DNA of 50,972 nt from a virus (Duplodnaviria; Caudoviricetes). Both the position numbers and the translations under genes were made by a program. The notes beneath the pieces were generated by a model. That model was not told where the DNA came from and searched no databases. It was given only the letters and a program-made list of their open reading frames with translations. The stretch's first letter is position 1. Each line of letters starts with the position of its first letter. Location: positions 1-50,972 of IMG/VR virus record IMGVR_UViG_3300033076_000745; one strand, written 5' to 3'. Below, piece by piece: positions 5,249 to 44,448 of this stretch.

Positions 5249-5249
5249 T

Positions 5250-5699: not shown

Positions 5700-5700
5700 T

Positions 5701-6327: not shown

Positions 6328-6329
6328 TT

Positions 6330-6632
6330 ATGAATATATACGTAGATATCGACGAAACGATATGTTATTACGAAGGAGAAAGAGAATACCAGTATGCAAT
6401 TGGTATTCCAGAGAACATAGAAAAAATTAATAAACTTTACGATGAAGGAAATACTATTACGTATTGGACCGCTAGAGGTACTGTACATAGAGATAGAATT
6501 CCGGAATACGAAGATTTAACTCTCTATCAACTAACTGCATGGGGTGCTAAATTCCACCACTTAATTGTAGGAGAAAAACCTGCTTACGATTTAATTATTT
6601 GTGATAAAAGTAGGAGAATTGAAGAAATTTAA
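6330..6632 (+). CDS. Minimal cap-less HAD phosphatase
   Basis: DIDET motif I, WTAR motif II, KP..D..ICDK motifs III/IV. Confidence 0.8.
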   Translation: MNIYVDIDETICYYEGEREYQYAIGIPENIEKINKLYDEGNTITYWTARGTVHRDRIPEYEDLTLYQLTAWGAKFHHLIVGEKPAYDLIICDKSRRIEEI

Positions 6633-6645
6633 TTACATTTAATAT

Positions 6646-11265: not shown

Positions 11266-12022
11266 AATTAGCGACTACAGTAATCCAGAGAAAGTAAAAC
11301 CTGATTACGCAAGCAAAGAAGACTGTCTGAGAGTCTATGTAAGGGAATTTACAAATAGTAACCTAATTGTACTGTGTGATAATGTATCACAGCAGACTTT
11401 GAAGATGGTACAAAAGTACGCAGATAAAGATAATGTGTATGTAACTAACAATGGAAATACCGGTTCGTTTTTAGCTAGTTTGGATATAGCAAATAGAATT
11501 GCAGTAGAGAAAGGATTGTTAGACGATACTATTTTTTATTTTCTAGAAGATGATTATCTTCATAGAAGAGGAGCACGTAAGATAATGTTCGAAGCGTTTG
11601 AAGATTTAAAAGCAGATTACGTAACATTATACGATCATCCAGATAAGTATCAAAACCTAAAAGACCCTAGATACGTTTGGGGACATGGGAGAGTAGATAT
11701 AGAAGAAGACGGTATTAGAAAACCGGGTATAATCTACAACGTAGGGAAACAAGATACGGTTTATGTAAGTAAATCAACACACTGGAGAACAGTAGAAAGC
11801 ACCACTATGACTTGGGCTACTACAGCTAAGAATGTTGTAGAAGATTTTCAAGATCTCTGGAGCCTTCACGAAGGACAGCCTTTACCAATGGGTGGAGCTA
11901 CTTTTAGAATGTTGGCTGAAAAAGGAAAGAAATTATATAGTCCATTAACTGCTTACTCAACACATGCCGAAGAAAAATGGATGGCTTATTTTGTTGATTG
12001 GAAAAAAGAATCATTATGTTAA
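11243..12022 (+). CDS. GT2-like glycosyltransferase
   Basis: IVLCDN, GNTGSF, YFLEDDYLH, YDHPDKY. Confidence 0.75.
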   Translation: MNLVTIYRISDYSNPEKVKPDYASKEDCLRVYVREFTNSNLIVLCDNVSQQTLKMVQKYADKDNVYVTNNGNTGSFLASLDIANRIAVEKGLLDDTIFYFLEDDYLHRRGARKIMFEAFEDLKADYVTLYDHPDKYQNLKDPRYVWGHGRVDIEEDGIRKPGIIYNVGKQDTVYVSKSTHWRTVESTTMTWATTAKNVVEDFQDLWSLHEGQPLPMGGATFRMLAEKGKKLYSPLTAYSTHAEEKWMAYFVDWKKESLC

Positions 12023-12846
12023 CACATTGTATTAGTACTTACAACAACCTACCTTATTTAAAGTTAGCAGTAGAGTCTGTTCGAAAGAATAGCTACTTCA
12101 AAGACGCTCCATTTATTATTCATGCTGAGAACTGTACAGACGGTACTTACCAATGGTTAGCAGATAATGGTGTAAAATATAACTTAACAGTTTATATAAA
12201 AGATTTAGAACCTTCCGGACTGGGGCAGGGCATGAACTTCATAGCAGAGAAATGCGAAACTGAATATATTAATTTTCTACATTCAGATTTTTACGTTACA
12301 AAGAACTGGGATCTAGAATTATTAAAAGTACATGAGGCTAATCCTGAAAAGAAGTTATGGGTTAATTCTTTTAGAATCGAACCTAATATGTTTAATTCTC
12401 CAGAACGCCCAGGTACTTTATTAGTACGGCCTGAAGATTTCGGAGCCTATCCTAATGATTTTGATACAGAGAAGCTAGAAAAGTATGCTGAACTTTTTGC
12501 AATAATGAATGAGTTTGAAATACCAAAAGGAGAAGGAGTTTCAGGATTAGTTAAGAAGACGGTTTGGGATGAAGTAGGAGGTAATGATCCTTTATTTGCT
12601 CCAACTAGTTGGGATGATATGGATTTATTCCTACGAATGAGACAAGCAGGAGTAGAGTTTGTAATGCCGTCTAAGTCTATTGTTTGGCATTTTGGAGCTA
12701 GAGGTAGTCACCGTCTTGAAGAGAATGGAGGACAGTCTTCTGAAAGACAGAAAAGAGCAGAAGCTGAAAATATCGGTAAATTTTTTAATAAGTGGAAAGG
12801 ATTACCAACCTTCGATGCTTATGGAATGATAAACGGAGTAAAATAA
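12016..12846 (+). CDS. GT2 glycosyltransferase (start moved to ATG 12016)
   Basis: ISTYNN, NCTDGT, FLHSDF, WDEVGGND, WDDMDLFLR. Confidence 0.9.
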   Translation: MLTHCISTYNNLPYLKLAVESVRKNSYFKDAPFIIHAENCTDGTYQWLADNGVKYNLTVYIKDLEPSGLGQGMNFIAEKCETEYINFLHSDFYVTKNWDLELLKVHEANPEKKLWVNSFRIEPNMFNSPERPGTLLVRPEDFGAYPNDFDTEKLEKYAELFAIMNEFEIPKGEGVSGLVKKTVWDEVGGNDPLFAPTSWDDMDLFLRMRQAGVEFVMPSKSIVWHFGARGSHRLEENGGQSSERQKRAEAENIGKFFNKWKGLPTFDAYGMINGVK

Positions 12847-14051
12847 TGGATAAAATAACATTTTGTATTCCTAGTAAGAACAACTTAAGGTACTTAAAAA
12901 CCTGTGTTAAGTCTATTAGAGAAAATGCATACCGAAAAGACCATAACATTATTATATTTGTAGATTCAGATAATGACGGAACAGTAAAGTGGTTAGAAGA
13001 GAATGCAAAACAGTACAACTTAGAGTATTATGTAAATCCTAAATTAGGTAAAGAACTCTTTGGTATCGGAATGGCATATGATTTTTGTATTAGTGAAAGC
13101 GATACAGATGTTTTTATGATCTTTCATGCTGATATGATCTTAGGTAAAGATGCAGATTATAATGCATATAACCAACTACAGGAAAAGACTGTAGTATGTT
13201 CTACTCGAATTGAACCTCCCCTACATCCTAATGCCGGAGAAAAGATCTTAATGGACTTTGGGGTATGGCCTGAAGAGTTTAAAGAAGAAGCATTTAATGC
13301 TTTTGTAGAAAGAGAAAATAAAACTGCTGAAGTAACAGAAGGTATTTTTGCTCCTTGGATGATGTATAAAAAAGACTATGCTACATTAGGCGGACACGAC
13401 CCTATTTTAAAATCAGCTAGAGAAGACTCAGATATTTTTAATAGAATGTTACTAGCCGGCTTTAACTTTATACAACCTTGGTCTAGCCTTGTTTACCATT
13501 TTACAGGTAGAGGTGGACAATTCCAGCATGGAAGTGTAGGAGAGAAGAAAGATGAAGAATGGCAACAGCTTATGAATAATTCTACTAGAGAGTTTATTCG
13601 TAAATGGGGTTCTAACGTTAAACACACGTCTCTAATGAAACCAATTGTTACGCCTAAGTACAATATAGGTTTTGCAGTTAAACATTGTAATTTACAGTTA
13701 TTAGATGCTTTAGAACCTTGGTGTGATAGGATTTATATTGATGACGAGATGGGAGTATTATTTGCATCTTATTACGAATATGAACATAAAAGAACTAGTT
13801 ACGATTTAAGAAAGAGAGTACTGACTCTAGGTTATCAAAATCCTCATGAATACGATGATATTGTAGTTGAGATAGACGGCAAGCAATTTACTAATCAGGA
13901 TTTTCAAGTATTACAGCAATTACCTGATATACTACAAGAACAAGGACAACCTGGCAAGTTTAAACTAGGTAATATGACTATTACAGTCCATCGTTTAGAA
14001 GAGTCCCAAAATTCTCTAATACATGTAACAACAAGCTATTTATTTACATAA
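12846..14051 (+). CDS. GT2 glycosyltransferase with C-terminal extension (start moved to ATG 12846)
   Basis: FCIPSKNN, DSDNDGT, FHADM, LGGHD, REDSD, VYHF. Confidence 0.9.
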   Translation: MDKITFCIPSKNNLRYLKTCVKSIRENAYRKDHNIIIFVDSDNDGTVKWLEENAKQYNLEYYVNPKLGKELFGIGMAYDFCISESDTDVFMIFHADMILGKDADYNAYNQLQEKTVVCSTRIEPPLHPNAGEKILMDFGVWPEEFKEEAFNAFVERENKTAEVTEGIFAPWMMYKKDYATLGGHDPILKSAREDSDIFNRMLLAGFNFIQPWSSLVYHFTGRGGQFQHGSVGEKKDEEWQQLMNNSTREFIRKWGSNVKHTSLMKPIVTPKYNIGFAVKHCNLQLLDALEPWCDRIYIDDEMGVLFASYYEYEHKRTSYDLRKRVLTLGYQNPHEYDDIVVEIDGKQFTNQDFQVLQQLPDILQEQGQPGKFKLGNMTITVHRLEESQNSLIHVTTSYLFT

Positions 14052-20990: not shown

Positions 20991-21936
20991 TTTTAAAATC
21001 ATATATGTAAACTGGACTAAGCCTTATTTTAGTAAAAATAATTTTACAGGAATAAAAAGCTACTTAAAAGATGCAAGCGAACCTTCTTTAGAGTATAAAT
21101 TGGAGGACTATGAAAAACTTATGCAAATTTACAGTTTTACCTCTGCTAAAAGACATACAGGTGCTCCTATAAAAATGTACACAGATACAGCTGGATACGA
21201 GTATTACCGTAAGGAGAATATGCTACAGTACTTTGATGAAATTGATGTAGATTTTCTTAATTCTATAAATGAAGACCCTACTATAAACCCTACTCAGTTT
21301 TGGACAAGCGGAAAGATTCTAAGTATCTGTAACGAAGAACCTCCATTCCTATTCCTAGATACAGACTTCTTTCTTTTAGAAAAAATACCAGATTGGGTTT
21401 TTGAAAAAGATGTAACTCATGCTCATTGGGAGTTACTAAGAGCATGGCTGTATTTAACAGAAGGTAGAGTTAAGGAGTTCGGACTTGATATTCCAGAATT
21501 TTCAGAAACTATGCTTATACCTAATACTTGCTTTCTATTTATGAATGATAATCGGTTAGTAAGAGATCTTCAAAAGAGGTATAGAGAGTTACATTTAGAA
21601 ATAGTTACAAAGAAGTATAATTATGTTCCTGACGAACTGTGGCTAATGACTGATCAAAATATATTAGGTTACCTATTACGAGATAGAAATGCTAATGTAG
21701 GTCACGCTAAGAATAAGGTATACATACAATTTTCAGACAGAAGTACTACACATAAAGTGGGTAATACTCCAGAATGGACCCATCTCGATAACTTAGAAAA
21801 AAATCTTCCGGAAGTTGCTTACCATCATGTATGGTTTCAAAAAATATATATGCATAGAGACCTAGAGCTTAGAGAAGGTATTATGAAAGATTGGCAACTA
21901 TTAATAGATCAAAATTTAAAAATACTTAACAAATGA
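20983..21936 (+). CDS. Putative DxD transferase (DUF6734-like)
   Basis: MYTD..G, FWTSGKI, PFLFLDTD, PNTCF, DQ motif. Confidence 0.6.
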   Translation: MSNFKIIYVNWTKPYFSKNNFTGIKSYLKDASEPSLEYKLEDYEKLMQIYSFTSAKRHTGAPIKMYTDTAGYEYYRKENMLQYFDEIDVDFLNSINEDPTINPTQFWTSGKILSICNEEPPFLFLDTDFFLLEKIPDWVFEKDVTHAHWELLRAWLYLTEGRVKEFGLDIPEFSETMLIPNTCFLFMNDNRLVRDLQKRYRELHLEIVTKKYNYVPDELWLMTDQNILGYLLRDRNANVGHAKNKVYIQFSDRSTTHKVGNTPEWTHLDNLEKNLPEVAYHHVWFQKIYMHRDLELREGIMKDWQLLIDQNLKILNK

Positions 21937-22370
21937 TATACTGGTTTACAGGACAGCCTGGAGCAGGCAAAACAACATTAGCTTATATGCTATCTACTCA
22001 TCTATTCCCTAAATCAATTAATGTTGATGGAGATGATTTGAGAGAGCTTTTCGATAATAAAGACTATTCCGAAGCCGGAAGAAGAAAGAATATAGAGTTA
22101 GCTCAGAATCTAGCTCATTTTTTACATAAAAAAGATTATAATGTTTTTGTATCTTTAGTATCTCCCTATAGAGATCAAAGAGAGAGTTTTAAACAATTAA
22201 TAGGAGAAGGAATAGTAGAGATATATGTACATGCTTTTGAAGATAGAGGACGTACACAATACCATGTAAGTAACTATGAACCTCCTGTAGAAAATTTTAT
22301 CGATATTGATACAACCAACGATACTCCATTTCAGTCTTATATGAAGATTAAAGAGAAGTTGGATCTTTAA
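21933..22370 (+). CDS. cysC: Adenylyl-sulfate (APS) kinase
   Basis: WFTGQPGAGKTT, VDGDDLR, DYS..GR..NI, SLVSPYR, YEPP. Confidence 0.9.
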   Translation: MIYWFTGQPGAGKTTLAYMLSTHLFPKSINVDGDDLRELFDNKDYSEAGRRKNIELAQNLAHFLHKKDYNVFVSLVSPYRDQRESFKQLIGEGIVEIYVHAFEDRGRTQYHVSNYEPPVENFIDIDTTNDTPFQSYMKIKEKLDL

Positions 22371-22389
22371 AAATAAGTTCATATCTTAA
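22359..22389 (+). promoter_or_regulatory. -33/-7 promoter (possibly near-leaderless transcript)
   Basis: TTG-N20-TATCTTAA immediately before ATG 22393. Confidence 0.6.
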
Positions 22390-22392
22390 AGT

Positions 22393-22794
22393 ATGAGTAG
22401 TAAATATTTAGCAACAGCTGCCTTTCAATCTTCATCTAACAAGGTGAAGTATTCTATGTTTATAGGCAGATGGCAACCTTGGCATGCTGGGCATCGCTGG
22501 TTGATAGATCAAAGGTTAAAAGACGGTAAGAAAGTTCTACTAGCTATTAGAGATGTAGAACCTGATGAAAAGAATCCATGGACTCCACAAGAGGTTTTAA
22601 GCAACCTTACTAACGAATTATTAGATTTAATCGAAGAAGGTAAGTTAAAAATTATCATCATTCCAGATATCGAATCTATTAATATTGGTAGAGGAGTTGG
22701 ATATGATGTTATTGAGCATGTTCCACCAGATGACATCAGAGACATATCAGCAACCGGTATCCGTAATCAAATGAAAGAGGAGGGTAGGTTATGA
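22393..22794 (+). CDS. Minimal HIGH-motif nucleotidyltransferase (cytidyltransferase-like)
   Basis: FIGRWQPWHAGH, KNP, GR, ISATGIR. Confidence 0.85.
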   Translation: MSSKYLATAAFQSSSNKVKYSMFIGRWQPWHAGHRWLIDQRLKDGKKVLLAIRDVEPDEKNPWTPQEVLSNLTNELLDLIEEGKLKIIIIPDIESINIGRGVGYDVIEHVPPDDIRDISATGIRNQMKEEGRL

Positions 22795-23009
22795 TTGTAG
22801 AAAAGAAACGACATATAGCTAAGACAATCTCTTACCGAGTAGTTAGTACTGCTATAGGGTTTATTACTATGTGGGCAGTAACCGGTTCTGTTAAATTTGG
22901 AGCAGCTTTTGGAATTGCAGAACTACTTTGGAAACCAATTCAGTACTATATTCATGAACGTATCTGGTATAAGTGGATTAAGTATGGGTTAAGAAAAGAT
23001 AAGGTATGA
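22791..23009 (+). CDS. DUF2061-like small membrane protein
   Basis: RHIAKTISYR...YYIHERIW. Confidence 0.8.
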   Translation: MIVEKKRHIAKTISYRVVSTAIGFITMWAVTGSVKFGAAFGIAELLWKPIQYYIHERIWYKWIKYGLRKDKV

Positions 23010-23338
23010 TTTATATAGCAGTGTTTTTAGTATTCCTTGTAACACTTTACGGGGCAATAGGGTATACTAAGATTTTTAGGAAATATAGAATGTATACAAC
23101 TAAAGAGTACTGGACTGATTATAATATTATAGAATTAGCTGCTTGGATGTCTAAAGCAGCTATTATCATACCAGGGTTGGTTTTTGGCATAGAGTTGTGG
23201 TATTTTCATTTTCTTACTTTAGCTACATCGAGTTTACTTATATGGGCTAGTATGAAAAAAAGTCTACCTACCTTAATACTCTTTAATACGATCTGGATTT
23301 GTATCTCTCTTACAATTATAATACGAAACTTACTATAA
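23006..23338 (+). CDS. Small integral membrane protein
   Basis: About four hydrophobic segments. Confidence 0.65.
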   Translation: MIYIAVFLVFLVTLYGAIGYTKIFRKYRMYTTKEYWTDYNIIELAAWMSKAAIIIPGLVFGIELWYFHFLTLATSSLLIWASMKKSLPTLILFNTIWICISLTIIIRNLL

Positions 23339-23908
23339 ATGTATACAAACTTTGTAGAAAACTTTTTGACTGTAGATGAATGTAATTCTATTGTAGAGTT
23401 AGGAAAAGCTACTGGCTTGGAAAAAATGACATCTGCTAAATTTGTAAATGGAGTTTACACAGAAGTGTCATTGAACGAAGAGACTAACAAAAGAAAAGGA
23501 TGTTACTTTGTTGACGATACTCTACAGAACGGCTTGATAAAGTCTATAACAGAAAGAACCCTGCAGTTAGTAAACCAATTAAAGGTATTTAACGGAGTAG
23601 AATACATAGGAGTACCTAAATATTCGTTTAATGAATATAACTCAGGTGATTTTCTAACTTGGCATTCTGACTCTCATGAGATAATGTATGGAGCTTCTTT
23701 AACCGTAATTTTCCAACTAAACGAAGATTATAAAGAAGGAGATATAATGTATACAGTAGAAGGATTAGAATATTCAGTACCAAAAAAAGTAGGAAGTCTA
23801 TTTATATTTGATTCTAACATACTACATTCAGTAAAAGAGATTAAAGGTGGAACTAGGTATTCGTTAAATGTCTGGCCATCAAGTAAAATTAAGAGATCGG
23901 TTATATGA
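23339..23908 (+). CDS. 2OG-Fe(II) oxygenase (prolyl-hydroxylase-like)
   Basis: FLT.DEC, WHSD, LNEDY.EG, LHSV, GTRYSL.VW. Confidence 0.9.
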   Translation: MYTNFVENFLTVDECNSIVELGKATGLEKMTSAKFVNGVYTEVSLNEETNKRKGCYFVDDTLQNGLIKSITERTLQLVNQLKVFNGVEYIGVPKYSFNEYNSGDFLTWHSDSHEIMYGASLTVIFQLNEDYKEGDIMYTVEGLEYSVPKKVGSLFIFDSNILHSVKEIKGGTRYSLNVWPSSKIKRSVI

Positions 23909-25149
23909 AAGACATAGTAATTATCGGAGGAGGGACTGCAGGATGGCTTACAGCTCTTTACATGAAAAAAAGATACAAAGAGTATAGGATAACTTTAGTA
24001 GAAAGTACTAAGTTAGGTATACTTGGAGCTGGGGAAGGTGGTACTCCAAATTTAAGAGGAATGTTGTTAGGTGAGTTTGGTTTTGATGAAGCTGAGTTTT
24101 TATCAGAAGTTAATGGCACTAAGAAGTATGGTATTCTTTTTGATAAATGGAATATCGACCCTACCCATTCTTTCGTACATGGTTTTGGTTTAGATGCTTT
24201 AGAAGACCCTACAGAGTATTCCTATCATTTTGATGCAAGACTATTTGCTAAGTTCCTACAAAAGAAAGGAATGGAATTTGGAGTGCATCATTTAGATAAG
24301 GAAGCTCAAGTCTTTCTTAAAACTGGATCACAAATCTCTACTATTATCTGCGAAGACGGTTCAGAAATACCTGTAGATTTTTTGATTGATTGTTCTGGTT
24401 TTCGTCGATTAGTAATTGGAGAGGTTTATAAAAGCTCTTGGAAATCATACGAAGATCATTTGAAAGTAAATACAGCAATACCTTTCTTTATCAATAAACC
24501 TAATCAAGACCTTTACCAAAGAACTATTGCCGAAGCAGCTAACTACGGGTGGGTTTGGAAAATACCTTTACAGAACAGATGGGGGTGTGGTTATATCTAT
24601 GATAGTAGTCTTGTAGATGAAGATGAAATAAAAGAAGAAATTCTAAAACTACATCCTTCAGAAGACATACAGTTTAATAAAAAGATAAGTTTTAATGCTG
24701 GATGTTACGAAAAGGTATGGATTGAAAACTGTATTGCTATAGGACTATCAGGAGGCTTTCTTGAACCTTTAGAAGCTACTTCTATTATGACAACAATCTT
24801 TCAGTTAAAATTCTTACCTGATGATTTGTTTGACTATTCTAAGAGAGAGGTTTACAATCACCTTACAGAAAGAATTAATTTTCAAAATATGTCGTTCATT
24901 AGACATCATTATAATTGTAGCAGGGAAGATACTACATTCTGGAAAGAGTATAGAACTCGAAAACTACCTACAGAGTTAGAAGATATCTATTCTGAAATGA
25001 AACAACCAGTAGGAGCTAAAACACCTCTTTCTTCAATTTTTAAGTTAGAAAAAAGTATTATGAAAGACTATGGTATATCTTTTGGCATGACCCAATATAA
25101 ACATGTACAGGTTCATAACTTTATGAAAAAACAAAAAACTTTAATATGA
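23905..25149 (+). CDS. Flavin-dependent halogenase (tryptophan halogenase family)
   Basis: GGGTAGW, GAGEG, TKKYGI.F (catalytic Lys position), DCSGF, WVWKIPLQ (WxWxIP), FLEPLEATSI. Confidence 0.9.
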   Translation: MKDIVIIGGGTAGWLTALYMKKRYKEYRITLVESTKLGILGAGEGGTPNLRGMLLGEFGFDEAEFLSEVNGTKKYGILFDKWNIDPTHSFVHGFGLDALEDPTEYSYHFDARLFAKFLQKKGMEFGVHHLDKEAQVFLKTGSQISTIICEDGSEIPVDFLIDCSGFRRLVIGEVYKSSWKSYEDHLKVNTAIPFFINKPNQDLYQRTIAEAANYGWVWKIPLQNRWGCGYIYDSSLVDEDEIKEEILKLHPSEDIQFNKKISFNAGCYEKVWIENCIAIGLSGGFLEPLEATSIMTTIFQLKFLPDDLFDYSKREVYNHLTERINFQNMSFIRHHYNCSREDTTFWKEYRTRKLPTELEDIYSEMKQPVGAKTPLSSIFKLEKSIMKDYGISFGMTQYKHVQVHNFMKKQKTLI

Positions 25150-25784
25150 TAGAAAAGTTAGTTTTTGGGAAGTCGACAGTAATATACCGAAAGAAGTTAA
25201 GAGAATTAATTCCTTATAAAGAAGAGTTATTAAAGAAGTGTGAAAAAGTTATACAAAGTCAGCCAGATGTGAAATCTGATGGGTATGCGTACTTAAGGTT
25301 TAGAGATGTACTAGAGTTTACCGGTAAGTTAGAACATACAAATGTGATGGATAAAGTAGTACAAGCTGGAATTGATTACTGTAAGGAGCTTTACACGGAT
25401 GCTGATTACAATATGATAGATACAGACGCTTGGGTTAATGTAGTAAGAGCTAAGAATCCTGTTCAACCGAATTTTTATGATGAGAAACAGAAGTTTCATA
25501 TTCATACAGATATTAATGAAATGAATGGACAGTTTAAACCTACATATACTTACGTTTATTATATACAGATGCCAGATAACTTAGAAGGAGAAGATGGTGT
25601 TTTGTATTTTTTAGATGAGGATAAAAAAGAACATTACATCTTACCAGAAGAAGGAGACCTTATCATTATGAAAGCAGACTTACCTCACGCACCTAACAGT
25701 GCATTAAAGTCAACAGTCGATAGAATGGTATTAGCAGGTAATGTAGGATTCCAGAATGTTAAAAAATTAAAGAGCTTAATATAG
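25146..25784 (+). CDS. Putative 2OG-Fe(II) oxygenase
   Basis: AWVN, HIH, YVYYIQMP, PEEGDLII...PH, R.VLAGN. Confidence 0.75.
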   Translation: MIEKLVFGKSTVIYRKKLRELIPYKEELLKKCEKVIQSQPDVKSDGYAYLRFRDVLEFTGKLEHTNVMDKVVQAGIDYCKELYTDADYNMIDTDAWVNVVRAKNPVQPNFYDEKQKFHIHTDINEMNGQFKPTYTYVYYIQMPDNLEGEDGVLYFLDEDKKEHYILPEEGDLIIMKADLPHAPNSALKSTVDRMVLAGNVGFQNVKKLKSLI

Positions 25785-26563
25785 TGTTAGTAGATAATAG
25801 ATTTATATTTCTCAGCTTACCTAGATGTGCATCAACTTCTCTAGAGTATTCTTTTATATTAAGCGGATTTGACGTACAGCATGTAAATCCTTTTACTGCA
25901 GAGAAGAACTCTAAAATAGATTTCAAACAGGTACCACCAGCTGATATAATGAATTATATAGAGCATGGTCATGAATCGTTGGTAGAACTAGAAGAAAAAT
26001 TTGGGAGTACATATCCTATTATCGCTATAAAAAGAGACAGTAGAGCTAGGTTCTTTTCCTTATATCAACATATTCTTTACGATTTAAGAAGAGTAGGAGA
26101 AGTTGAGCTTTACGAGCATTTTAAAAACCTAACAGCTGAAGAGCTATTCTTTTTTTCTAAAGAAGATTTAGTAACTAAAGCAAGTAGATGGAATGTTCTA
26201 AATGATTACTTAGTTAAGAATAAACTAAAACCCAAAGCTATTAATCTAGACTTAACAAAAAGCAATCTAATCTCTTCAGAGAACAAAATGGAAGGTTACT
26301 ATATGAATATCCTAGATATATTAATAACACCTTTATCTTTTTGGCACAATCATGATAGTAGAATTAAATGGTTTAACATTCAGAATTTAGGAGAAATGGA
26401 AAGCTGGATTAAAAATGCAACCGGAAAAGCTTTTACTTTAGAAAAGGTTAATTCAAATATAGGAGAGGAATCTAAAGTACAACTTAACGACGCTTTTATA
26501 CAGGCTTACAGTAACGTATACGACTATTACGATAAACCTAAGAGCATTAAGACATTAATTTAA
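25784..26563 (+). CDS. Sulfotransferase (family 2-like), GTG start
   Basis: FLSLPRCASTS PAPS-binding loop; RD...RFFSLY 3'-PB motif. Confidence 0.75.
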   Translation: MLVDNRFIFLSLPRCASTSLEYSFILSGFDVQHVNPFTAEKNSKIDFKQVPPADIMNYIEHGHESLVELEEKFGSTYPIIAIKRDSRARFFSLYQHILYDLRRVGEVELYEHFKNLTAEELFFFSKEDLVTKASRWNVLNDYLVKNKLKPKAINLDLTKSNLISSENKMEGYYMNILDILITPLSFWHNHDSRIKWFNIQNLGEMESWIKNATGKAFTLEKVNSNIGEESKVQLNDAFIQAYSNVYDYYDKPKSIKTLI

Positions 26564-26859
26564 TGATAAAAGAAATAGATTATAGAGAGATTTTTGATGC
26601 CTGGTTGATTTCTTTTAAACCAACTAAACAGCAAAGTAGTTTAGCGGAAGAAAGACTTGAAGTATGTAAGTCGTGTGTTAACCGGAAAGAATTACTAAAG
26701 AATAATAGATGGTCTGCTTATTGCGGCTTATGTAATTGCCCACTGAGTAAGAAAGTATTTTCCAGAATGTACAATCCCTGTCCTGCAGACAAGTGGGAAT
26801 CTATTGACATAAAGTATATGGAGAAGCAAGAAACGAAGAAAGACTCTTCTATAATCTAG
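26563..26859 (+). CDS. Cys-rich small metal-binding protein (DUF6171-like)
   Basis: R..VCKSC...CGLCNCPL..K...CP..KW. Confidence 0.7.
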   Translation: MIKEIDYREIFDAWLISFKPTKQQSSLAEERLEVCKSCVNRKELLKNNRWSAYCGLCNCPLSKKVFSRMYNPCPADKWESIDIKYMEKQETKKDSSII

Positions 26860-26869
26860 AAGTTCAAAC

Positions 26870-26876
26870 TATTTAT
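26870..26876 (+). promoter_or_regulatory. TATTTAT motif upstream of the ATP-grasp/Hint fusion
   Basis: Intergenic, ~27 nt before ATG 26903. Confidence 0.4.
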
Positions 26877-26902: not shown

Positions 26903-28393
26903 ATGAAAGCAACCATTATAGGTAGTGATTTATTAGAAAGAAACGGAGACGTTACGTTTTTAGAGATAAACACAAACACAACAATTTACAATCAAGGAGC
27001 TGACTTACTGGACTATACTGCTCTCTTTGCAATGTTACAGGAGAATAGTATAACAGAATTTCATTTCATCTGGACGGAACTTGATTCATACACTCCTCAT
27101 TTTGAGAGATTTAGGTTTAAAGACATCTTAGAAGAGAAGTGCCAAGAAGTAGGTATTTCGTTCCACGACTATAGTGTACCTAAAAACTCAATCACAGTAC
27201 CTTATGTTGAGGATGCAGCTCATAAGTTTATATTAAGACAGTCTTTTGATACAACTGCTTTAGTAGACGAAACCTATTGTGCAGATAAGTTTGAATTTTT
27301 TAACCTACTGAGTGGATCAACTTACACACCTGATACTTACTTTACTGACTTAACTTTAAATCTAGATACCTTTAATACTTTGGATACTACTGCTACCGGT
27401 GTACCAAACGTTCTTATTAAGTCTAGAATACCTGGATACAACTTAGATGAGTATCCTGCAATGTATAGATTAGATACAGTAGAGGAGTTGCAAGACCTAA
27501 AGCAAAACCTACCAGCCGGAACGTTAGTACAGGAATTTATTTATTCTGAAGATAATTTAGTAGATGGAAGATATGCTGTTATTAGAAGTATAGATATTAT
27601 ATATGGTGGAAATCTAGATGTTATTAACTTAGGAGGGTATAAACAGACAACAATAATACCAGTAGCATTCTGTGCTGACGAATTCGTTGCAGGTACTAAA
27701 AAATTAAATCAGAAAAGTAGATTTAAGTACTTAACAAAAGCAATTGGAGGAGGTAAAGCAGTTAACTACCATACTGATGATGACTCTGTCATAGTAGACT
27801 ATACGGGAGCATTAAAAGATGTAGATACTATCCAATTAGGAGATTATATAAGATCTATAAATTTCCAAGACAACCACGGTAACCCAGCAGCAAGCTTTGA
27901 CCAAACGTTAATGGAGACTTACGGATGGGACGGAACATTAGCACAAGCTAATGCAACCCTTACTCCAATGTCTTCTAGTCTTAATTCAATGGTTTCTGCA
28001 TCAGTAGAGACTATTTACATACGAATTACATTAGAAGACGGTAAGACCTGGACTGATTCTCCGTCATGTACTTATTTCTTTGAAGAGTCTGGATCGTTAA
28101 ATACTAGATGGGATAAAGTAAATAAAATGGTAGTAGGAGATAAGATAGTAGTAACAGATGTTAATACAAATAGTTTAACAACATTAGCTATTACTTCTCT
28201 AGAAATGGAATTTGCTACAAAAGTAATTTACTCTCTAGATTTTGAACCATCCGATTTATTCTTAGTAGATGTTGGAGACGGTTTATTTAGTGTAATGCAC
28301 AATACTTGCTGGTGCCCATGGAACTATTGCGGACACTGGTGTAATAGTTGGTACTGCCCTTCTTGTAGCGGTGGAGGTTTCGAAAAAGTATAA
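26903..28393 (+). CDS. Fusion: circularly permuted ATP-grasp domain + Hint domain + C-terminal Cys/Trp-rich peptide
   Basis: N-terminal GSDLL....FLEINTN, later ADK..F, VLIKS, LVQEFI; Hint-like S.I...G..K.V..IQLGD ... VIYSLDFE..DLFLV...VMHN; then TCWCPWNYCGHWCNSWYCPSCSGGGFEKV. Confidence 0.75.
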   Translation: MKATIIGSDLLERNGDVTFLEINTNTTIYNQGADLLDYTALFAMLQENSITEFHFIWTELDSYTPHFERFRFKDILEEKCQEVGISFHDYSVPKNSITVPYVEDAAHKFILRQSFDTTALVDETYCADKFEFFNLLSGSTYTPDTYFTDLTLNLDTFNTLDTTATGVPNVLIKSRIPGYNLDEYPAMYRLDTVEELQDLKQNLPAGTLVQEFIYSEDNLVDGRYAVIRSIDIIYGGNLDVINLGGYKQTTIIPVAFCADEFVAGTKKLNQKSRFKYLTKAIGGGKAVNYHTDDDSVIVDYTGALKDVDTIQLGDYIRSINFQDNHGNPAASFDQTLMETYGWDGTLAQANATLTPMSSSLNSMVSASVETIYIRITLEDGKTWTDSPSCTYFFEESGSLNTRWDKVNKMVVGDKIVVTDVNTNSLTTLAITSLEMEFATKVIYSLDFEPSDLFLVDVGDGLFSVMHNTCWCPWNYCGHWCNSWYCPSCSGGGFEKV

Positions 28394-28405
28394 AATAAAG
28401 AACAT

Positions 28406-28558
28406 ATGTCACAAACAAACGGAAATATTAAAAGAATAGAACGCCCAGATAGCGTTATTAAGACTAATGTAGTACCTTTAACAACTGAATTAAAGACCAA
28501 AGTGTCAACAGCATTTCAGTTTGTAGTAAATAAGATTAAAGAGAAGCATTTGTCTTAG
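28406..28558 (+). CDS. Small protein (50 aa), probably co-transcribed with the fusion gene
   Basis: Hand-translated MSQTNGNIKRIERPDSVIKTNVVPLTTELKTKVSTAFQFVVNKIKEKHLS. Confidence 0.6.
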   Translation: MSQTNGNIKRIERPDSVIKTNVVPLTTELKTKVSTAFQFVVNKIKEKHLS

Positions 28559-28620: not shown

Positions 28621-29124
28621 ATGAAGTATACAATCAATAAAGTTTTAACAGAACAAGAATGTGCTGAAGCTTTAGAAATCTGTATGAAAGATGGAGAAAA
28701 GTTTTACTATACAAAAGAAGAAGTAAATAGCTGGGACTGTAGGAGAATATACAATCAGGATTTTAAAAACTACATACTCCAGAAATTAGAAGTAATACAT
28801 GATCTGGATAGTTTATACATTAAAGATGTAATTATTAGTTTAACTAGGTACTACGATTCCCGCCGTCTAGATTTACATTTAGATAGAAATTCTAACTACA
28901 CAACAGTAATACCTCTTACAGACAATTATACAGACGGAAGGTTTGTTTTATCTGAAATACACTGTCCCTTACCTGATGCAGAAGTAAAAGTAAGTTTGGA
29001 TAAAGGAGAAGGTATAACGTTCGAAGGTAACAGGATATACCACGGAGTAATGCCGGTACATAGTGGAGTTAGAAGTGCTCTAAACATATGGGTAGATGGG
29101 ATTAATAAAAATAAGTTATTATGA
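28621..29124 (+). CDS. 2OG-Fe(II) oxygenase
   Basis: LT.QEC, LHLD, YHGV.PV.SG.RSAL.IW. Confidence 0.85.
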   Translation: MKYTINKVLTEQECAEALEICMKDGEKFYYTKEEVNSWDCRRIYNQDFKNYILQKLEVIHDLDSLYIKDVIISLTRYYDSRRLDLHLDRNSNYTTVIPLTDNYTDGRFVLSEIHCPLPDAEVKVSLDKGEGITFEGNRIYHGVMPVHSGVRSALNIWVDGINKNKLL

Positions 29125-29768
29125 GAATTGCAATACTAACAAGCGCTAGAAGCGGCTCTACAAGTCTATACCATATTATAGAAAAACAACTCCTTACAAG
29201 GAAGTATTATTGTATATCTGAACCGTTCAACAAAGGATGGAGAGAACCAGCAGGATTGAATACATACGATATAGATTATTTTGAAGACAAGCAAGATATT
29301 TTTATTAAAACATTTGTGAGTAGTGGACAAAAACCAACAACCTTTGTCGATGATGAACATGGTTATTGGAAATGGTTCTTTGACTATTTCGAAAAAGTAA
29401 TTATTTTAGATAGAAAAGACAAGCAACTTCAAAGCGAAAGTATAACGTATCACCTTAAGAAAGCAGATCCTTATAGCTGGCAAAAACGACAGTATTACAA
29501 CTTAGATAAGATTTCACAAGAAGATATTAAGAAAAGCAAAGAGGTTTTATTTAGAGATTCAAGAATGATGCATTACTTTGCAAATAAGGGGTATCCTTTG
29601 TTCTACTTTGAAGATCTTTTCATTGAGAAAAATAGAGAAAAAGCTGAAAAGCTTTTTGAATACCTAGAGTTACCTTTGATAGAGAAAGATTATGAAGAGT
29701 TTATCAAATCAGATACCTATAAGATAAGATTGACAAAAGAAGAAGCTCGATTTAAAAGTATTATATGA
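29121..29768 (+). CDS. Sulfotransferase (Stf0-like)
   Basis: TSARSGSTSL, SEPFN, I.LDRKD...Q.ES, YFEDLF. Confidence 0.75.
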   Translation: MRIAILTSARSGSTSLYHIIEKQLLTRKYYCISEPFNKGWREPAGLNTYDIDYFEDKQDIFIKTFVSSGQKPTTFVDDEHGYWKWFFDYFEKVIILDRKDKQLQSESITYHLKKADPYSWQKRQYYNLDKISQEDIKKSKEVLFRDSRMMHYFANKGYPLFYFEDLFIEKNREKAEKLFEYLELPLIEKDYEEFIKSDTYKIRLTKEEARFKSII

Positions 29769-30445
29769 TATCAAGATCAGTTGTAAAAGTATTAGGGCCA
29801 TCCGCAACTCCTTTTGTAGAAAATTTCTTAACTAGAAATGAAAACTTTCTAGAAGAAAAGACCTTATCTACAAAGCTAACTGTAATAGGGAATTATATAA
29901 CTCTTTTACATAAAGAAGATTATAGTAAGTTAATAGATATAGATCCAGAGCAACTACTAAGCACGTACGACTCTTTTATTAATAACTATAAAGATAAGTA
30001 TACTACAGATAACTACAAAGAAGAGAATAAAGTTATATTAGATCACAGAGTAAATGGAGTTGGGTTTTACTGGGTAGACTTACAGAGAGAGTTTTCGATA
30101 GAATCTATGGTTAGATTAAAACACTGCGGTAGAGCTAATTACGGAAATACTTTACTAGAATTAAGAGAACAGGTACTAGGGGGAAACTTAAGCCATCTTG
30201 TTATAGTTTACGAAACAAGAACAGGTATTATTAGACAGGTAAAAGGAAAGTATAATTCTAAACCAGTTGAGAAATACTATAATCTTTTTTATGATTTTTT
30301 GATAAATACAGACTATAAGGTAACCAAGTACGTCCCTACATATAAGCCTGAAAATGATCTAAAAGTAGAAGAACTACCAATGACTATGCAACTGAACATC
30401 TACAAAAAATTTCCAAAATTAAACAAAAAAGGGAACCTTCTGTGA
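29765..30445 (+). CDS. Hypothetical protein with PcfJ-like C-terminal motif
   Basis: HCG...LRE...SH....IRQVKGKYNSKP. Confidence 0.5.
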   Translation: MISRSVVKVLGPSATPFVENFLTRNENFLEEKTLSTKLTVIGNYITLLHKEDYSKLIDIDPEQLLSTYDSFINNYKDKYTTDNYKEENKVILDHRVNGVGFYWVDLQREFSIESMVRLKHCGRANYGNTLLELREQVLGGNLSHLVIVYETRTGIIRQVKGKYNSKPVEKYYNLFYDFLINTDYKVTKYVPTYKPENDLKVEELPMTMQLNIYKKFPKLNKKGNLL

Positions 30446-38636: not shown

Positions 38637-39305
38637 ATGAGAATCACATTAGAGAAAGATCAGAAGCTTTTCTTTACTTCTGACACGCATTATAATCATA
38701 AGAATATCTGTAGAGGAGTCACCAATTGGAGAACTGCTGATGGTGAAATACCTATCGACCAGACTAGAGACTTTCCAAACTTAGAGAAGATGAATGCTAC
38801 AATTGTTAATAACATTAACGAGGTAGTAGGTCAAGATGATATCTTAATTCACTTAGGTGATTGGTCATTTGGTGGTTTTGAATCAATCAAAGAGTTTAGA
38901 GATAGAATCGTATGTAAGAATATTTACTTAGCATACGGCAACCATGATCACCACATTCAGAATAACAGAGAAGGTATTCAAGGGATTTTTAGAAAGACAT
39001 TCCAGTATGAAGTATTAACTGTTTACAACCATAAAGGAGAAAATAAGATAGAGTTTGTAATAGACCATTACCCTTTATGTAGCTGGCATGATATGAACAG
39101 AGGAAGGTTTCACTTGTTTGGACACGTTCATTTACCTTCAGATAAGAAGCTAATGGGAGGTCGTTCGATGGATGTTGGAATGGATGGAAATAATCTAACA
39201 CCTTACTTAATGGAGGATGTAGTTAGAATGCTTTCCGGAAGACCAGTACAGGCAAATAGACTACCTCAAGACCACCATGAAGAAAGATTAAAAGGAGAGC
39301 AATAA
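38637..39305 (+). CDS. Calcineurin-like metallophosphoesterase
   Basis: SDTH, HLGD, GNHD, HYP, GHVH, DVGMD. Confidence 0.92.
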   Translation: MRITLEKDQKLFFTSDTHYNHKNICRGVTNWRTADGEIPIDQTRDFPNLEKMNATIVNNINEVVGQDDILIHLGDWSFGGFESIKEFRDRIVCKNIYLAYGNHDHHIQNNREGIQGIFRKTFQYEVLTVYNHKGENKIEFVIDHYPLCSWHDMNRGRFHLFGHVHLPSDKKLMGGRSMDVGMDGNNLTPYLMEDVVRMLSGRPVQANRLPQDHHEERLKGEQ

Positions 39306-39775
39306 TGAAAAAGTTAAATATATACTTAGACGATGTACGCACTCCTACAGAAGGAGATTGGGTTGTAGTAAGAAGCTATGATCAGTTTGTGAGTAATGTA
39401 ATGTACATTGGCTTAGAGAACATAGAAGTGATCTCTTTAGACCATGACTTAGGAGATAGTGCTATGTTAGAATACTATAATAATGTTAAAGATAACTACA
39501 AGCTAGATTACAGTAATATTAAAGAGAAGACAGGTTATGACTGCTGTAAGTATTTAGTTAACTTAAGTATGGATTCTGGAATACCTCTACCACAAGTCTA
39601 TGTACATTCGGCTAATCCAATTGGATCAGGTAATATGATGGGGTATATTAATAACTACCTAATGAATAAGAGACTACCACAGACTTGTGTTAGAGTTCAA
39701 ATACCTCATACAATAGAAGAAGAGTTTATTTTATCACCAGAAGCTAGAGAACAAAAATGGAAAAGAAAGAATTAA
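39305..39775 (+). CDS. Cyclic-phosphate-processing receiver-like domain protein
   Basis: YLDDVR, ISLDHDLG, TGYD, VHSANPIG. Confidence 0.8.
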   Translation: MKKLNIYLDDVRTPTEGDWVVVRSYDQFVSNVMYIGLENIEVISLDHDLGDSAMLEYYNNVKDNYKLDYSNIKEKTGYDCCKYLVNLSMDSGIPLPQVYVHSANPIGSGNMMGYINNYLMNKRLPQTCVRVQIPHTIEEEFILSPEAREQKWKRKN

Positions 39776-40965: not shown

Positions 40966-41820
40966 ATGATATTAAATTTAGCAGATGCAGGTAAGTCAGA
41001 AGTAGAATATAAAATCTCTACATTTCCTGACGGACAGCAGTCATTAGAAATTATTCTTCCTTTATTTTTTTCAAATAAAATAGTACAGATCAAATCAAGA
41101 CTAAATTCATTTAAGGATTTAGAATTAATTATATGTGCTAATCAAGCCTTGAAAAATCTAGGATGTAAAGAGGTATGGTTATTTGTTCCTTATTTCCTAG
41201 GAGCTAGAAGTGATAGACGATTCACAGATGGAGGTGTTAACTACTTGAAGCAAGTAATCTGCCCTATAATCAATAGCCAGGACTTTAGTAAAGTAGAAGT
41301 ACTAGACCCTCATAGTGACGTATTAGAAGCATGTTTAAATAACTTCGTAAAGAAAGATAATACAGAGTTAGCTAGATTTGCTTTAACTAAGATTGATAAT
41401 AGAGATGGTGCTCAACATAGAACAGCATTTATCTCTCCAGATGCAGGTGCTTTAAAGAAGATATTCGATTTAGCAAAGACCTTTGGAGTAGAGAATGTAA
41501 TAACTGCTTCTAAAGTTAGAGATATTCAAACAGGTAATATTATAAAGACTGAATTACCGGTCATGAATTTAGACGGTATCGAGCAGTTTGTTATTATAGA
41601 TGATATCTGTGACGGTGGTAGAACATTTATTGAATTAGCTAAAGTAATTAAGCAGCAAACAGATAAACCAGTTTACTTAATCGTAACACATGGAGTATTT
41701 AGTGCTGGCTTTAAAGTATTATTTGAATACTTCGAAGGTATCTTCTGTACTAATTCAATCGATAATATAGACTCAACTTCATTTGCTGGGGAGAAAGTAA
41801 AACAACAAAACATATTCTAA
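40966..41820 (+). CDS. Ribose-phosphate pyrophosphokinase-like protein (probable Adps of NARP1)
   Basis: FPDG, PYFLGARSDR, LDPHS, SPDAGA, IIDDICDGGRTF, VTHG. Confidence 0.9.
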   Translation: MILNLADAGKSEVEYKISTFPDGQQSLEIILPLFFSNKIVQIKSRLNSFKDLELIICANQALKNLGCKEVWLFVPYFLGARSDRRFTDGGVNYLKQVICPIINSQDFSKVEVLDPHSDVLEACLNNFVKKDNTELARFALTKIDNRDGAQHRTAFISPDAGALKKIFDLAKTFGVENVITASKVRDIQTGNIIKTELPVMNLDGIEQFVIIDDICDGGRTFIELAKVIKQQTDKPVYLIVTHGVFSAGFKVLFEYFEGIFCTNSIDNIDSTSFAGEKVKQQNIF

Positions 41821-41821
41821 T

Positions 41822-43336
41822 ATGAATCCATTATTATTAACTGACGGTTATAAAACAGGACATCACCAACAGTACCCAGAAGGAACAACGTTGGTATATT
41901 CAAACTTTACTCCTCGTAGTAACAAGTATGCACCTAAAGGATGTGAACAAGTAGTATCATTTGGACAGCAGATGATTATGCGCCGTATTCATGAAGCATT
42001 TCAAAATGAGTTCTTCTCTAAACCTAAAGAAGAAGTTTGCGGAGAGATGAAGAGAGAGTTATCAATGTACTTAAATACCGATTACGATGTAAGCCATTTC
42101 GAAGCATTACACGACTTAGGGTACTTACCTATTGTAGTAAAAGCTATTGAAGAAGGTACATTAGTTCCTATTAAGGTTCCTGTATTAACAGTATATAATA
42201 CTCATCCAGATTTCTACTGGGTAACAAACTATTTAGAGACAATTATCTCTAACTTGTTATGGAAGCCAATGACATCTGCTAGTATTGCTTATACTTATAG
42301 AAAGTTATTAACTAAATGGCAAGAGAAAACTGATGCAGAAAAGAGCTGGTTTGTTGATTGGCAAGCACATGACTTCTCTATGAGAGGAATGGATGCAGTT
42401 GACGCTACAGTTAGTTCTGGATTAGGACATTTAACTTCATTTAGTGGAACAGATTCATTACCTGCTTTAGATGGAGCTAGACGTTACTATGATGAGACAG
42501 GCTTTGTAGGAGGATCAGTTAATGCAACAGAACACTCAGTAATGTGTGCTGGTTCTAAAGAGGATGAAGTTGGTACATTTAGACGTCTATTACAGACATA
42601 TCCAACAGGTATCTTATCTATTGTATCTGATACTTGGGACTTATGGAAGGTATGTACAGAGCATGTAGTTACTTTGAAAGAAGAGATTTTAGCTCGTGAT
42701 GGTAAAGTAGTTATTAGACCTGACTCTGGTGATCCGGTAGATATTATTTGCGGTATCGACGATTATAAGCAAGATGAAGACGGTACTATGTACAAAGCTC
42801 ATTACACAAGTGGAATGTTTAGAGACAGAGGAAGAAAGATTTCATCAGCAGAACAGAAAGGTGTTATTGAGTTACTTTGGGATGTGTTTGGAGGTACAGT
42901 AAATGAACAAGGATATAAGGTATTAGATAGCCATATCGGAGCAATCTATGGTGATTCAATTACATTAGATCGAGCAGAAGAGATCTGTGAAAGGTTAGCT
43001 GAAAAAGGCTTTGCATCTACTAACATAGTATTCGGAGTAGGATCATTTACATACCAGTACAATACTAGAGATACATTTGGCTTTGCAATGAAAGCAACCT
43101 ATGTTGAAGTAGAAGGTAAAGGTAGAGAAATCTTTAAAGATCCAATCACAGATGATGGAACTAAGAAATCAGCAACCGGTTTGTTGTGGGTAGATAAAAA
43201 TACTGACGGCGAGTATATCTTATTCGATAAAGTAACTTGGGAAGGTGAAAATAAAGGCTACTTAAAGACCATTTATAAAGATGGAAAATACTTTAACGAA
43301 ACAACGTTAACTAATATTAGAGAGAAATTAAAATAA
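41822..43336 (+). CDS. Nicotinamide phosphoribosyltransferase-like protein (probable Namat of NARP1)
   Basis: TDGYK.GH..QYP, HDFSMRG, ATEHSVM, SIVSDTWD, IRPDSGDP, IYGDSI, KDPITDDG.KKSA.G. Confidence 0.92.
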   Translation: MNPLLLTDGYKTGHHQQYPEGTTLVYSNFTPRSNKYAPKGCEQVVSFGQQMIMRRIHEAFQNEFFSKPKEEVCGEMKRELSMYLNTDYDVSHFEALHDLGYLPIVVKAIEEGTLVPIKVPVLTVYNTHPDFYWVTNYLETIISNLLWKPMTSASIAYTYRKLLTKWQEKTDAEKSWFVDWQAHDFSMRGMDAVDATVSSGLGHLTSFSGTDSLPALDGARRYYDETGFVGGSVNATEHSVMCAGSKEDEVGTFRRLLQTYPTGILSIVSDTWDLWKVCTEHVVTLKEEILARDGKVVIRPDSGDPVDIICGIDDYKQDEDGTMYKAHYTSGMFRDRGRKISSAEQKGVIELLWDVFGGTVNEQGYKVLDSHIGAIYGDSITLDRAEEICERLAEKGFASTNIVFGVGSFTYQYNTRDTFGFAMKATYVEVEGKGREIFKDPITDDGTKKSATGLLWVDKNTDGEYILFDKVTWEGENKGYLKTIYKDGKYFNETTLTNIREKLK

Positions 43337-44448
43337 TGAAATACGATTTAGACATATTAAAGAAGTATATGGAAGACGGGTTGGTTGTCAAACAAGACCA
43401 CCCTACCCTTCCTTTATCTGTCTACAACTATTCTCGTACTTGTCAGTATGAGAGCAAGTGGGATGAGATTACTTTAGCATGTCGCGGTCTTATCTTAGAT
43501 AATGAAGGTAACGTTGTAGCTAGTTCTTTTGCCAAGTTTTTTAACTACGAAGAAGTAATATGGACTAACCAAATACCGGAGAAAGGAGACTATGTTTATG
43601 TTCAAGAGAAGGTAGATGGTTCTCTAGGTACTTTATTCTACTACAACGATGAATGGCATTTAGCTACTAAAGGATCATTTACTTCAGAACAAGCTGTTAA
43701 GGGAATGGAGATAATCAAATCGAAGTACAACTTAGGAGCGTTTATGACTGATATGGTCTACATATGCGAGATCATCTATCCTGAAAATAGAATCGTAGTA
43801 GATTATAATGGTGAAGAGAAGGTAGTCTTCTTAAGCGTAACATCTCAAGGAGAGGAACTACACTGGACTACTGCTAAAGCAGTCTTTCATGCTTCCGGAA
43901 TATCAGAAGAAGATTTAGTTAAGACTGAGCAGCATTTTGCTTTTGGTCCAGAATTGTATAGGAGTTTGAAAGATAAGAACGAAGCAAACAAGGAAGGTTT
44001 TATCTTAAGATTCCAACCAGGTAATTTTAGGATGAAGATTAAGTTTGAAGACTATGTTCGTTTACATAGAATATTAACTGGATTCTCATCTAAAGACATT
44101 TGGGAGTTGTTAATGAATGGAGAAGATATGGAACCATTCTTAGAAAGAGTACCAGACGAATTTGATAAATGGGTAAGAAGTCAAATATCTAGTTTTCACT
44201 ATGGATTGTATCGAATAAGAGAAGATTGTGGTAAGATACATGACTATTTTAGATATGGAAAGTATAATGATGTAGATCCAGAACCAACTAAGAAGGACTT
44301 TGCATTACATTTAGAAAGATGTGGAACTAATCCTGGTTACCGTTCGGTATGCTTTGCAATATGGGATGGTAAGCCTTATGAACATATAATTTGGAAGTTA
44401 TTGAAACCTAAATATGAAAAACCGTTCTGGAATGAAAGTGAAAGTTAA
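43336..44448 (+). CDS. T4 Rnl1-like RNA ligase
   Basis: CRGLI, KFFN, EKVDGSLG (motif I), ATKGSF, E.IYPENRIVV.Y, EGFI, MKIK. Confidence 0.9.
   Translation: MKYDLDILKKYMEDGLVVKQDHPTLPLSVYNYSRTCQYESKWDEITLACRGLILDNEGNVVASSFAKFFNYEEVIWTNQIPEKGDYVYVQEKVDGSLGTLFYYNDEWHLATKGSFTSEQAVKGMEIIKSKYNLGAFMTDMVYICEIIYPENRIVVDYNGEEKVVFLSVTSQGEELHWTTAKAVFHASGISEEDLVKTEQHFAFGPELYRSLKDKNEANKEGFILRFQPGNFRMKIKFEDYVRLHRILTGFSSKDIWELLMNGEDMEPFLERVPDEFDKWVRSQISSFHYGLYRIREDCGKIHDYFRYGKYNDVDPEPTKKDFALHLERCGTNPGYRSVCFAIWDGKPYEHIIWKLLKPKYEKPFWNESES

Follow-up and report, generated by a model that had tools for sequence, protein, structure and literature searches.

The analysed window was the whole of a 50,972-nt virus record, estimated to be 28% complete. 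Its main gene is a 496-aa open reading frame on the plus strand, which the first-pass annotation had read as a circularly permuted ATP-grasp domain, a Hint domain and a Cys- and Trp-rich peptide in one polypeptide; the frame and the motifs were found at the positions reported there, and the observation is confirmed as genuine and not due to chance. The protein (P0001) and its profiles were assigned to no family by sequence searches of Pfam, PHROGs and PDB. The features of the locus are listed in Table 1.

Table 1. Features of the main gene and its surroundings in the window (tagged, carrying the C-terminal end-tag described in the text).
Feature	Position	Strand	Remarks
APS kinase, CTP_transf_like and DUF2061 genes	21933..23009	+	untagged, often linked
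110-aa hydrophobic cassette protein	23006..23338	+	Leu-Leu end; tag weak in its family (4/9)
2OG-Fe(II) oxygenase	23339..23908	+	tagged
Trp_halogenase-family flavoenzyme	23905..25149	+	E 1e-89; tagged
2OG-Fe(II) oxygenase	25146..25784	+	tagged
Sulfotransferase-like protein	25784..26563	+	weak match, phrog_3347 E 0.0026; tagged
98-aa CxxC protein, DUF6171-like	26563..26859	+	weak match, E 0.0056; tagged; adjoins main gene upstream in 71/76 loci
TATTTAT motif, candidate promoter for main and clamp genes	26870..26876	+	
Main gene	26903..28393	+	496 aa: permuted ATP-grasp, Hint0, Cys/Trp tail
ATP-grasp domain, circularly permuted	26903..27751	+	aa 1-283; D9/E21/N23 N-terminal, K129, K173, E211, R228
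Hint0	27770..28303	+	aa ~290-467; position 1 without Cys/Ser, block B without His; His466-Asn467 at the end
Payload	28304..28390	+	29 aa, 6 Cys, 4 Trp; Lys495 (nt 28385-28387) conserved
50-aa partner, predicted clamp on back of ATP-grasp sheet and on Hint0	28406..28558	+	untagged
2OG-Fe(II) oxygenase	28621..29124	+	tagged
Conserved cassette protein	29121..29768	+	no family match; tagged
Variable cassette protein, family unassigned	29765..30445	+	tagged

The APS kinase, CTP_transf_like and DUF2061 genes likely provide the sulfate-donor supply, and the conserved cassette protein without a family match may be sulfotransferase-like, judging by a motif. Elsewhere in the window, a block of glycosyltransferase, NeuB, cytidylyltransferase and methyltransferase genes (2524-14051) represents a sialic-acid-like sugar pathway, untagged except for 8213-8902. 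PRPP synthetase-like, NAMPT-like and RNA ligase genes at 40966-44448, together with metallophosphoesterase and cREC genes at 38637-39775, may be read as an NAD-salvage and RNA-repair counter-defence set. The label T4-like was withheld: gp23 was not found in the record, of which only an estimated 28% is present, and the control of that search likewise gave no signal.

A homologue search yielded 636 matches, the best 120 of which (60-97% identity) were aligned with the main protein, giving a set of 121 close relatives. A ligase-domain profile search gave 399 clusters at 50% identity; the best 150 of them, minus 18 under 440 aa, made up 132 long representatives, whose payloads included 85 with canonical Hints, 8 with S74 and 36 plain ones. 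A sister clade (276 matches, reached via a longer relative) aligns end to end through the His-Asn (hhalign 99.9%); there, Gly is the first residue of Hint0, and one to three canonical Hints come after it, behind a spacer of 0-8 residues. The contigs bearing the family reach 333 kb. A search of GTDB genomes with sequence patterns of the close clade gave no relative, and cultured phages gave no ligase-Hint gene, the matches there being ordinary inteins aligned to the extra Hint. The family is widespread in uncultured large phages and falls outside every family tested.

The AF2 model of residues 1-287 (pLDDT 92, pTM 0.86; 72-sequence alignment) had as its top Foldseek matches YjfC (7uk6, E 2e-6), YgiC, GspS and the yeast and human glutathione synthetases, which we take to be the circularly permuted ATP-grasp class, and the unpermuted Ddl, ArgX and PurK ranked below them. 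The TM-scores by query to the YjfC/YgiC/GspS-type matches were modest (0.40-0.46). The metal-binding D..ExN strands sit N-terminally, with the motif at aa 7-23, and the permutation proposed earlier from the motif order is borne out by the model. Residues D9, E21, N23, T24, D104, R112, D122, Y125, K173, and R228 were invariant among 72 sequences of 19-70% identity; D9, E21, N23, K173, and R228 presumably have ATP-, metal- and phosphate-related roles. Against the GspS/YgiC/GshA Pfam families, P0001 gave no match, and the best matches (E 0.014-0.18, in 2/72 members per family) fell short of the curated cut-off. The Atlas leads for both ATP-grasp and Hint agreed with the AF2/Foldseek matches.

In the full-length AF2 model (pLDDT 80; tail residues 470-496 below 50), the part at about 290-467 matched the hedgehog Hint domain 1at0 (E 1.7e-7, TM by target 0.77), the Clostridium thermocellum BIL 2lwy (TM by target 0.80), BUBL BIL2 and the Mtu RecA intein in Foldseek, with overall E-values of about 1e-7 and TM by target of 0.75-0.80, so that the Hint fold aligned by eye in the first-pass annotation was recovered. 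Canonical inteins carry Cys or Ser at position 1, TxxH in block B and Cys, Ser or Thr at +1, and many have His in block F. In Hint0, position 1 is H290 or Y289 (two possible registers) and not Cys/Ser, with Gly in the sister clade; block B has no His, the place of the block-F His is taken by Asp451, which is invariant, and the +1 residue is variable. The domain closes with His-Asn in 129/132 long representatives, with varying residues on its flanks and the penultimate His missing in 3/132. Both H466 and N467 were kept in 121/121 close relatives, and both synonymous codons were used for conserved residues; a Hint domain devoid of the position-1 nucleophile and ending in His-Asn, as described before, is thus what the close clade encodes. 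The +1 residue was any of 15 amino acids, Pro included, in the 132 representatives, and S (78), T (19), A (14), G (7), P (2), or D (1) in the 121 close relatives, and a role for a Thr N-terminus is unsupported. According to the available text of PMC5874633, the His-Asn is needed for C-terminal cleavage by Hint/BIL domains, and A-type BIL and PT-HINT domains undergo such cleavage. Hint0 has the terminal His-Asn of A-type BILs with no fixed +1 nucleophile (129/132) and lacks a thioester-capable N-terminal Cys. Judging from these residues, Hint0 is predicted to be unable to splice canonically and to keep what C-terminal cleavage requires. Since Cys1 and the block-B and block-F His are all absent, it would also be unable to activate an acyl group itself.

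The composition given earlier for the tail (29 aa with 6 Cys, 4 Trp, and 2 Tyr) was correct, and its average mass in the reduced state is 3361.8 Da. The six Cys were kept in 121/121 close relatives with mixed synonymous codons, and 109 different tails occurred among these 121 proteins. The Cys pattern, which the first-pass annotation had proposed to follow in homologues, did not extend across the family, where 34 plain payloads of at most 90 aa contained 0 (12 payloads), 6 (16), 8 (2), 10 (3), or 1 (one, a truncated Hint) Cys in 17 different spacings; the smallest payload was a single Lys. The maximal 19-aa hydropathy of 1.0 indicated no hydrophobic export segment. The Cys tail was found only directly behind the His-Asn of Hint0 (70/70 loci), and its origin as a shuffled tail-fibre tip was unsupported for this reason. 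Its origin as a collapsed Hint array was dropped as well, as seven representatives carry a Cys-rich core followed by a canonical Hint and then by Lys.

Three features of the system were absent from the first-pass annotation: a near-terminal Lys in the payload, a gene of about 50 codons for the clamp, and an end-tag on the enzymes. The Lys was within the last four residues of 121/121 close relatives, with S74 forms cut at their Ser, and within the last five residues of 32/34 plain payloads versus 660/1128 background ORFs (p 4e-6, for clusters that are not fully independent). Where a second self-cleaving module is present, the Lys lies at the junction. S74, a tail-fibre chaperone, was preceded by it as K-S-D in 6/6 S74-bearing close relatives, whose S74 matches were weak (E 3e-4 to 0.07, with scores that miss the curated Pfam cut-off), and in 6/7 parsed distant forms. 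Among 120 parsed sister-clade proteins, 106 end in Hint-His-Asn-Lys(-X) and 14 in a Hint without His-Asn; several of these 14 payloads have no Lys, and it is likewise absent from one S74 form (P0364) and from P0383. A mobile Hint cassette at the end of unrelated phage proteins mostly has Lys at +1, so that the conservation of the Lys may be partly cassette-derived. However, sister-clade proteins also have P-K-L-type ends several residues past the Hint, and the Cys tails finish in the same way, so the Lys is more than the +1 residue of the cassette. The proposal that every sister-clade inter-Hint peptide is a product was weakened, as the same Hint-Lys cassette ends unrelated proteins.

These payload data bear on the free, diffusible RiPP suggested by the first-pass annotation, which Hint0 would release and the cis ligase would cyclise head to tail or acylate at the new N-terminus with a small acid, as reportedly occurs in pheganomycin. 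The conserved release residues, the hypervariable payloads with even Cys counts resembling RiPP cores, and the S74 or extra Hints that could trim the far end are compatible with such a product. We nevertheless consider it unlikely, given that the +1 residue may be any of 15, Pro included, that head-to-tail closure is impossible for a one-residue payload and has no need of the conserved Lys, and that 77/121 tails lack an acid side chain. The same lack of Asp and Glu in 77/121 close-relative tails makes graspetide-type side-chain cyclisation by the cis ATP-grasp, one form of the cyclisation considered in the first-pass annotation, unlikely.

A gene of 35-70 codons lies directly 3' of the main gene in 139/140 loci with a full main gene. 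Complex prediction for residues 1-467 and the 50-aa protein of the window gave an ipSAE of 0.82 (0.81, 0.84, and 0.82 in the runs) versus 0.00 for the best of three controls; the 0.82 mark was reached by 116/157 solved and 2/215 mismatched pairs, counts that are only rough for alignments made here. The pLDDT of the partner was 75-80, and at least 80% of the contacts were common to the runs. In the predicted complex, the clamp helix packs against the side of the ligase sheet that faces away from the catalytic residues, while the N-terminal part of the clamp touches Hint0. The prediction supports binding between the two proteins; on this model, the 50-aa protein would cover the ligase sheet on its non-catalytic side and strap Hint0 to the ligase. 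A LysW-like active-site carrier was not favoured for it, because the predicted contacts omit D9, E21, N23, K173, and R228, residues other than these being uncertain.

The clamp is also relevant to the possibility that nothing is released. Hint0 would then be a structural relic, and a multi-turnover, LysW/carrier-like ligase would use the tail as a swinging Lys arm or to bind metal while making a small modified metabolite. The predicted contact of the clamp with Hint0 would suit this, as would the replaced block-F His, the lone-Lys payload resembling an arm and the sister-clade inter-Hint peptides resembling linkers. It appears very unlikely, however, in view of the His-Asn retained in 129/132 representatives amid variable neighbours, and of the large, varied Cys-rich payloads for which an arm has no need.

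The gene order of the cassette was conserved in 79 loci. Among unique core-cassette proteins, 436/454 terminate in an aliphatic pair that generally follows Lys and Ser/Thr; this end-tag was present in 117/548 other ORFs (peripheral cassette genes included), 0/61 main proteins, and 0/43 clamps. In the window, 9/9 cassette genes were tagged versus 3/77 others, and sister-clade cassettes were also tagged. The end-tag was found in 0/24 cluster genes of the ligase-free cultured phages HTVC008M, S-RIM44, and S-H38; seven of these genes are direct homologues. In addition, a DUF6734 protein at 47669-48841, 17 kb from the cassette, has a full tag-like end and is possibly a remote client.

With at least 6 kb available on each side, a halogenase was within reach in 28/28 close-clade versus 1/33 sister-clade loci, and an APS kinase was present in 19/28 wide loci. 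Tight linkage to halogenase, 2OG and sulfotransferase-like genes, for which the first-pass annotation had proposed a search, was observed in the close clade. In the sister clade (66 of 109 unique proteins, namely those whose payload was parsed and whose contig extends 6 kb or more downstream), a halogenase accompanied 3/6 Trp payloads versus 0/60 without Trp; the three loci with both form one sub-lineage, so that kinship confounds the co-occurrence of halogenase and payload Trp, and three Trp payloads have no halogenase. A halogenase-centred locus scan gave matches on the query's own contig only. As in RiPP systems generally, a ribosomal, variable core is encoded together with tailoring enzymes.

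The tag could alternatively be the acyl donor of the ligase, the C-termini of the enzymes being joined to the payload Lys in a ubiquitin/Pup-like manner to assemble, package or mark them. The closest ligases do act on peptide C-termini, and the tag, a neighbour of the ligase, extends precisely to the carboxylate. Even so, this seems quite unlikely: a single-use precursor could carry only one of the nine tagged enzymes, and a halogenase that tracks Trp payloads fits the payload as an enzyme substrate.

For halogenase/2OG arrays of phages, metabolite, capsule or tail-protein substrates have been proposed, and the available text of the two sources (PMC2938197, PMC7824862) describes no ligase-Hint precursor. 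The arrays of cyanophages and pelagiphages (Syn9, S-RIM44, and HTVC008M) contain the same enzyme families in tandem as the cassette but differ in that no ligase-Hint gene was found in cultured phages and no end-tag in the 24 genes of three records. Such clusters in ligase-free phages, as the available text of PMC2938197 and PMC7824862 presents them, and the sugar-modifying genes nearby in the window, are what would be expected if the ligase and tailoring enzymes made a non-ribosomal metabolite or capsule decoration, with the tail as an unrelated passenger cassette. This is highly improbable, since the Cys tail occurs only behind Hint0 (70/70), the end-tag is absent from the ligase-free clusters examined, and the halogenase follows the payload Trp.

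The motif TATTTAT stands no more than 70 nt before the main gene in 41/46 and 36/41 unique upstream regions, compared with 3.9 and 2.8 expected from shuffles and 114/1680 for other genes. A stricter form precedes 50/61 main genes and few enzymes; a separate promoter-like motif of the main gene that is rare before the enzymes would fit a stoichiometric product. Read on the opposite strand, TATTTAT corresponds to the T4 late element. Upstream enrichment of the T4 late promoter TATAAATA was not seen (6/46 and 0/41), scans for sigma-70 promoters and terminators were at chance level, and no tie of TATTTAT to structural genes was found. The motif also stands just upstream of further window genes at 2300, 16473, 35353, 37905, and 44547 and is a candidate phage promoter.

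The constants of the family are the ligase, the His-Asn of Hint0, the clamp and the distal Lys, and everything between them varies. The reading that we prefer, at somewhat below an even chance, is that the main protein is a single-use 'ligate-and-release' precursor, the tail of which would be modified, bonded through its Lys to an acceptor carboxylate and freed after Asn467; we infer its chemistry throughout. Within this reading, it is highly probable that the ligase would be active and form acyl-phosphates, and probable that Hint0 would cut after Asn467 by Asn cyclisation and could not splice. It is fairly likely that the complex of precursor and clamp would be the docking site of the tagged enzymes, which would act on the tail while it is tethered, by halogenation, hydroxylation or sulfation, a reversal of the leader logic of RiPPs. 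The ε-amine of the tail Lys would, with slightly better than an even chance, be the amine of the ligase, as spermidine is for YgiC/YjfC, and the ATP-grasp domain would take over the activation job of Cys1 in an ordinary intein. Both suggestions draw on the YgiC/YjfC-type ligases, which join peptide C-termini to spermidine according to the available text of PMC11762307, and on BUBL BIL2, whose Hint reaction ends in a Lys-ε isopeptide according to that of PMC8616854. The acceptor is proposed more tentatively to be the C-terminus of another protein, perhaps at the virion surface, where a variable peptide, modified and rich in disulfides, would in that case be exposed; the surface is a guess prompted by S74, the even Cys counts and the lack of a hydrophobic export segment. 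Release of a peptide with a free Thr followed by graspetide-like cyclisation is less likely than ligate-and-release.

The ligate-and-release reading can be extended to protein conjugation, an 'ATP-powered trans-splicing' proposed about as tentatively as the acceptor: the ligase would activate the C-terminus of a target, the tail Lys would attack it, the half-disabled intein would drop the ligase, and the hypervariable disulfide peptide, halogenated or hydroxylated, would stay on the target. The interchangeable tailoring enzymes would have been plugged in via their common four-residue end-tag and not by recognition of a leader.

With YgiC/YjfC, the synthetase domain of GspS and eukaryotic glutathione synthetase, the main protein has the permuted fold and the set of catalytic residues in common, and likely also the joining of an alkyl amine to the carboxylate of a peptide as an amide. 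It differs from these ligases in its identity of about 10%, the absence of a Pfam match, the fused Hint and payload, and the predicted separate clamp. A-type BILs, PT-HINT domains and BUBL BIL2 share with Hint0 the Hint fold and a terminal His-Asn with no fixed +1 nucleophile; unlike these domains, Hint0 has neither Cys1 nor the block-B/F His and is paired with an ATP-dependent ligase instead. Graspetides of the microviridin type are made by an ATP-grasp enzyme acting on a leader-bearing ribosomal peptide, with Lys/Ser/Thr donors and Asp/Glu acceptors. The main protein likewise combines an ATP-grasp domain with a Lys-bearing ribosomal peptide, but its ligase is permuted and fused to the precursor, there is no leader, and most cores have no Asp/Glu (77/121). 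Fused borosins of the OphMA type have the modifying enzyme and a variable core in one polypeptide (available text of PMC11395268), as does the main protein; its N-terminal domain, however, is an ATP-grasp ligase and not a backbone N-methyltransferase, release is predicted to be self-cleaving and built in instead of depending on a separate peptidase, the tailoring enzymes share a tag, and the system is phage-encoded. The main protein would operate as fused RiPP precursors do, with a release of the BIL type, and it is a member of neither class. Full-text searches of open-access papers found no published description of the architecture or its logic, in agreement with the first-pass annotation, which named no described system of this kind.

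If the ligate-and-release reading is true, the locus would represent a phage ribosomal-peptide pathway with a built-in release domain, an ATP ligase that replaces the intein Cys, and enzymes that carry their own address in an end-tag. The halogenase/2OG-oxygenase/sulfotransferase arrays of large phages, which have long lacked an explanation, would for the first time have a concrete candidate substrate, and a portable tag and a self-releasing cassette for any payload could serve peptide engineering.

Several observations were made on remote relatives and on unrelated proteins with Hint domains. The canonical Hints of the sister clade are, by eye, mostly followed by Lys/Arg at +1/+2 and not by Cys/Ser/Thr, with amine-based splicing as a possibility. 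Unrelated large phage proteins (L147:37-2517, L148:7202-10462, and L149:7586-10450) end in a canonical Hint and a single Lys, with PKD/InlB-B repeats in one of them, and these ends in L147-L150 appear as a mobile C-terminal activation cassette. A remote relative (L140:6293-9067) has Ser at position 1 of Hint0, a second Hint and a Gly-rich repeat payload of about 310 aa; it adjoins genes for a C39 peptidase and a sulfotransferase, and its next gene encodes 270 aa, not about 50 aa. Finally, the protein at L151:9869-11035 comprises a Cys-rich N-terminal peptide, a Gly linker, a canonical Hint, and a second Cys-rich part; this protein and its neighbours end in Arg/Lys runs, possibly another end-tag system.
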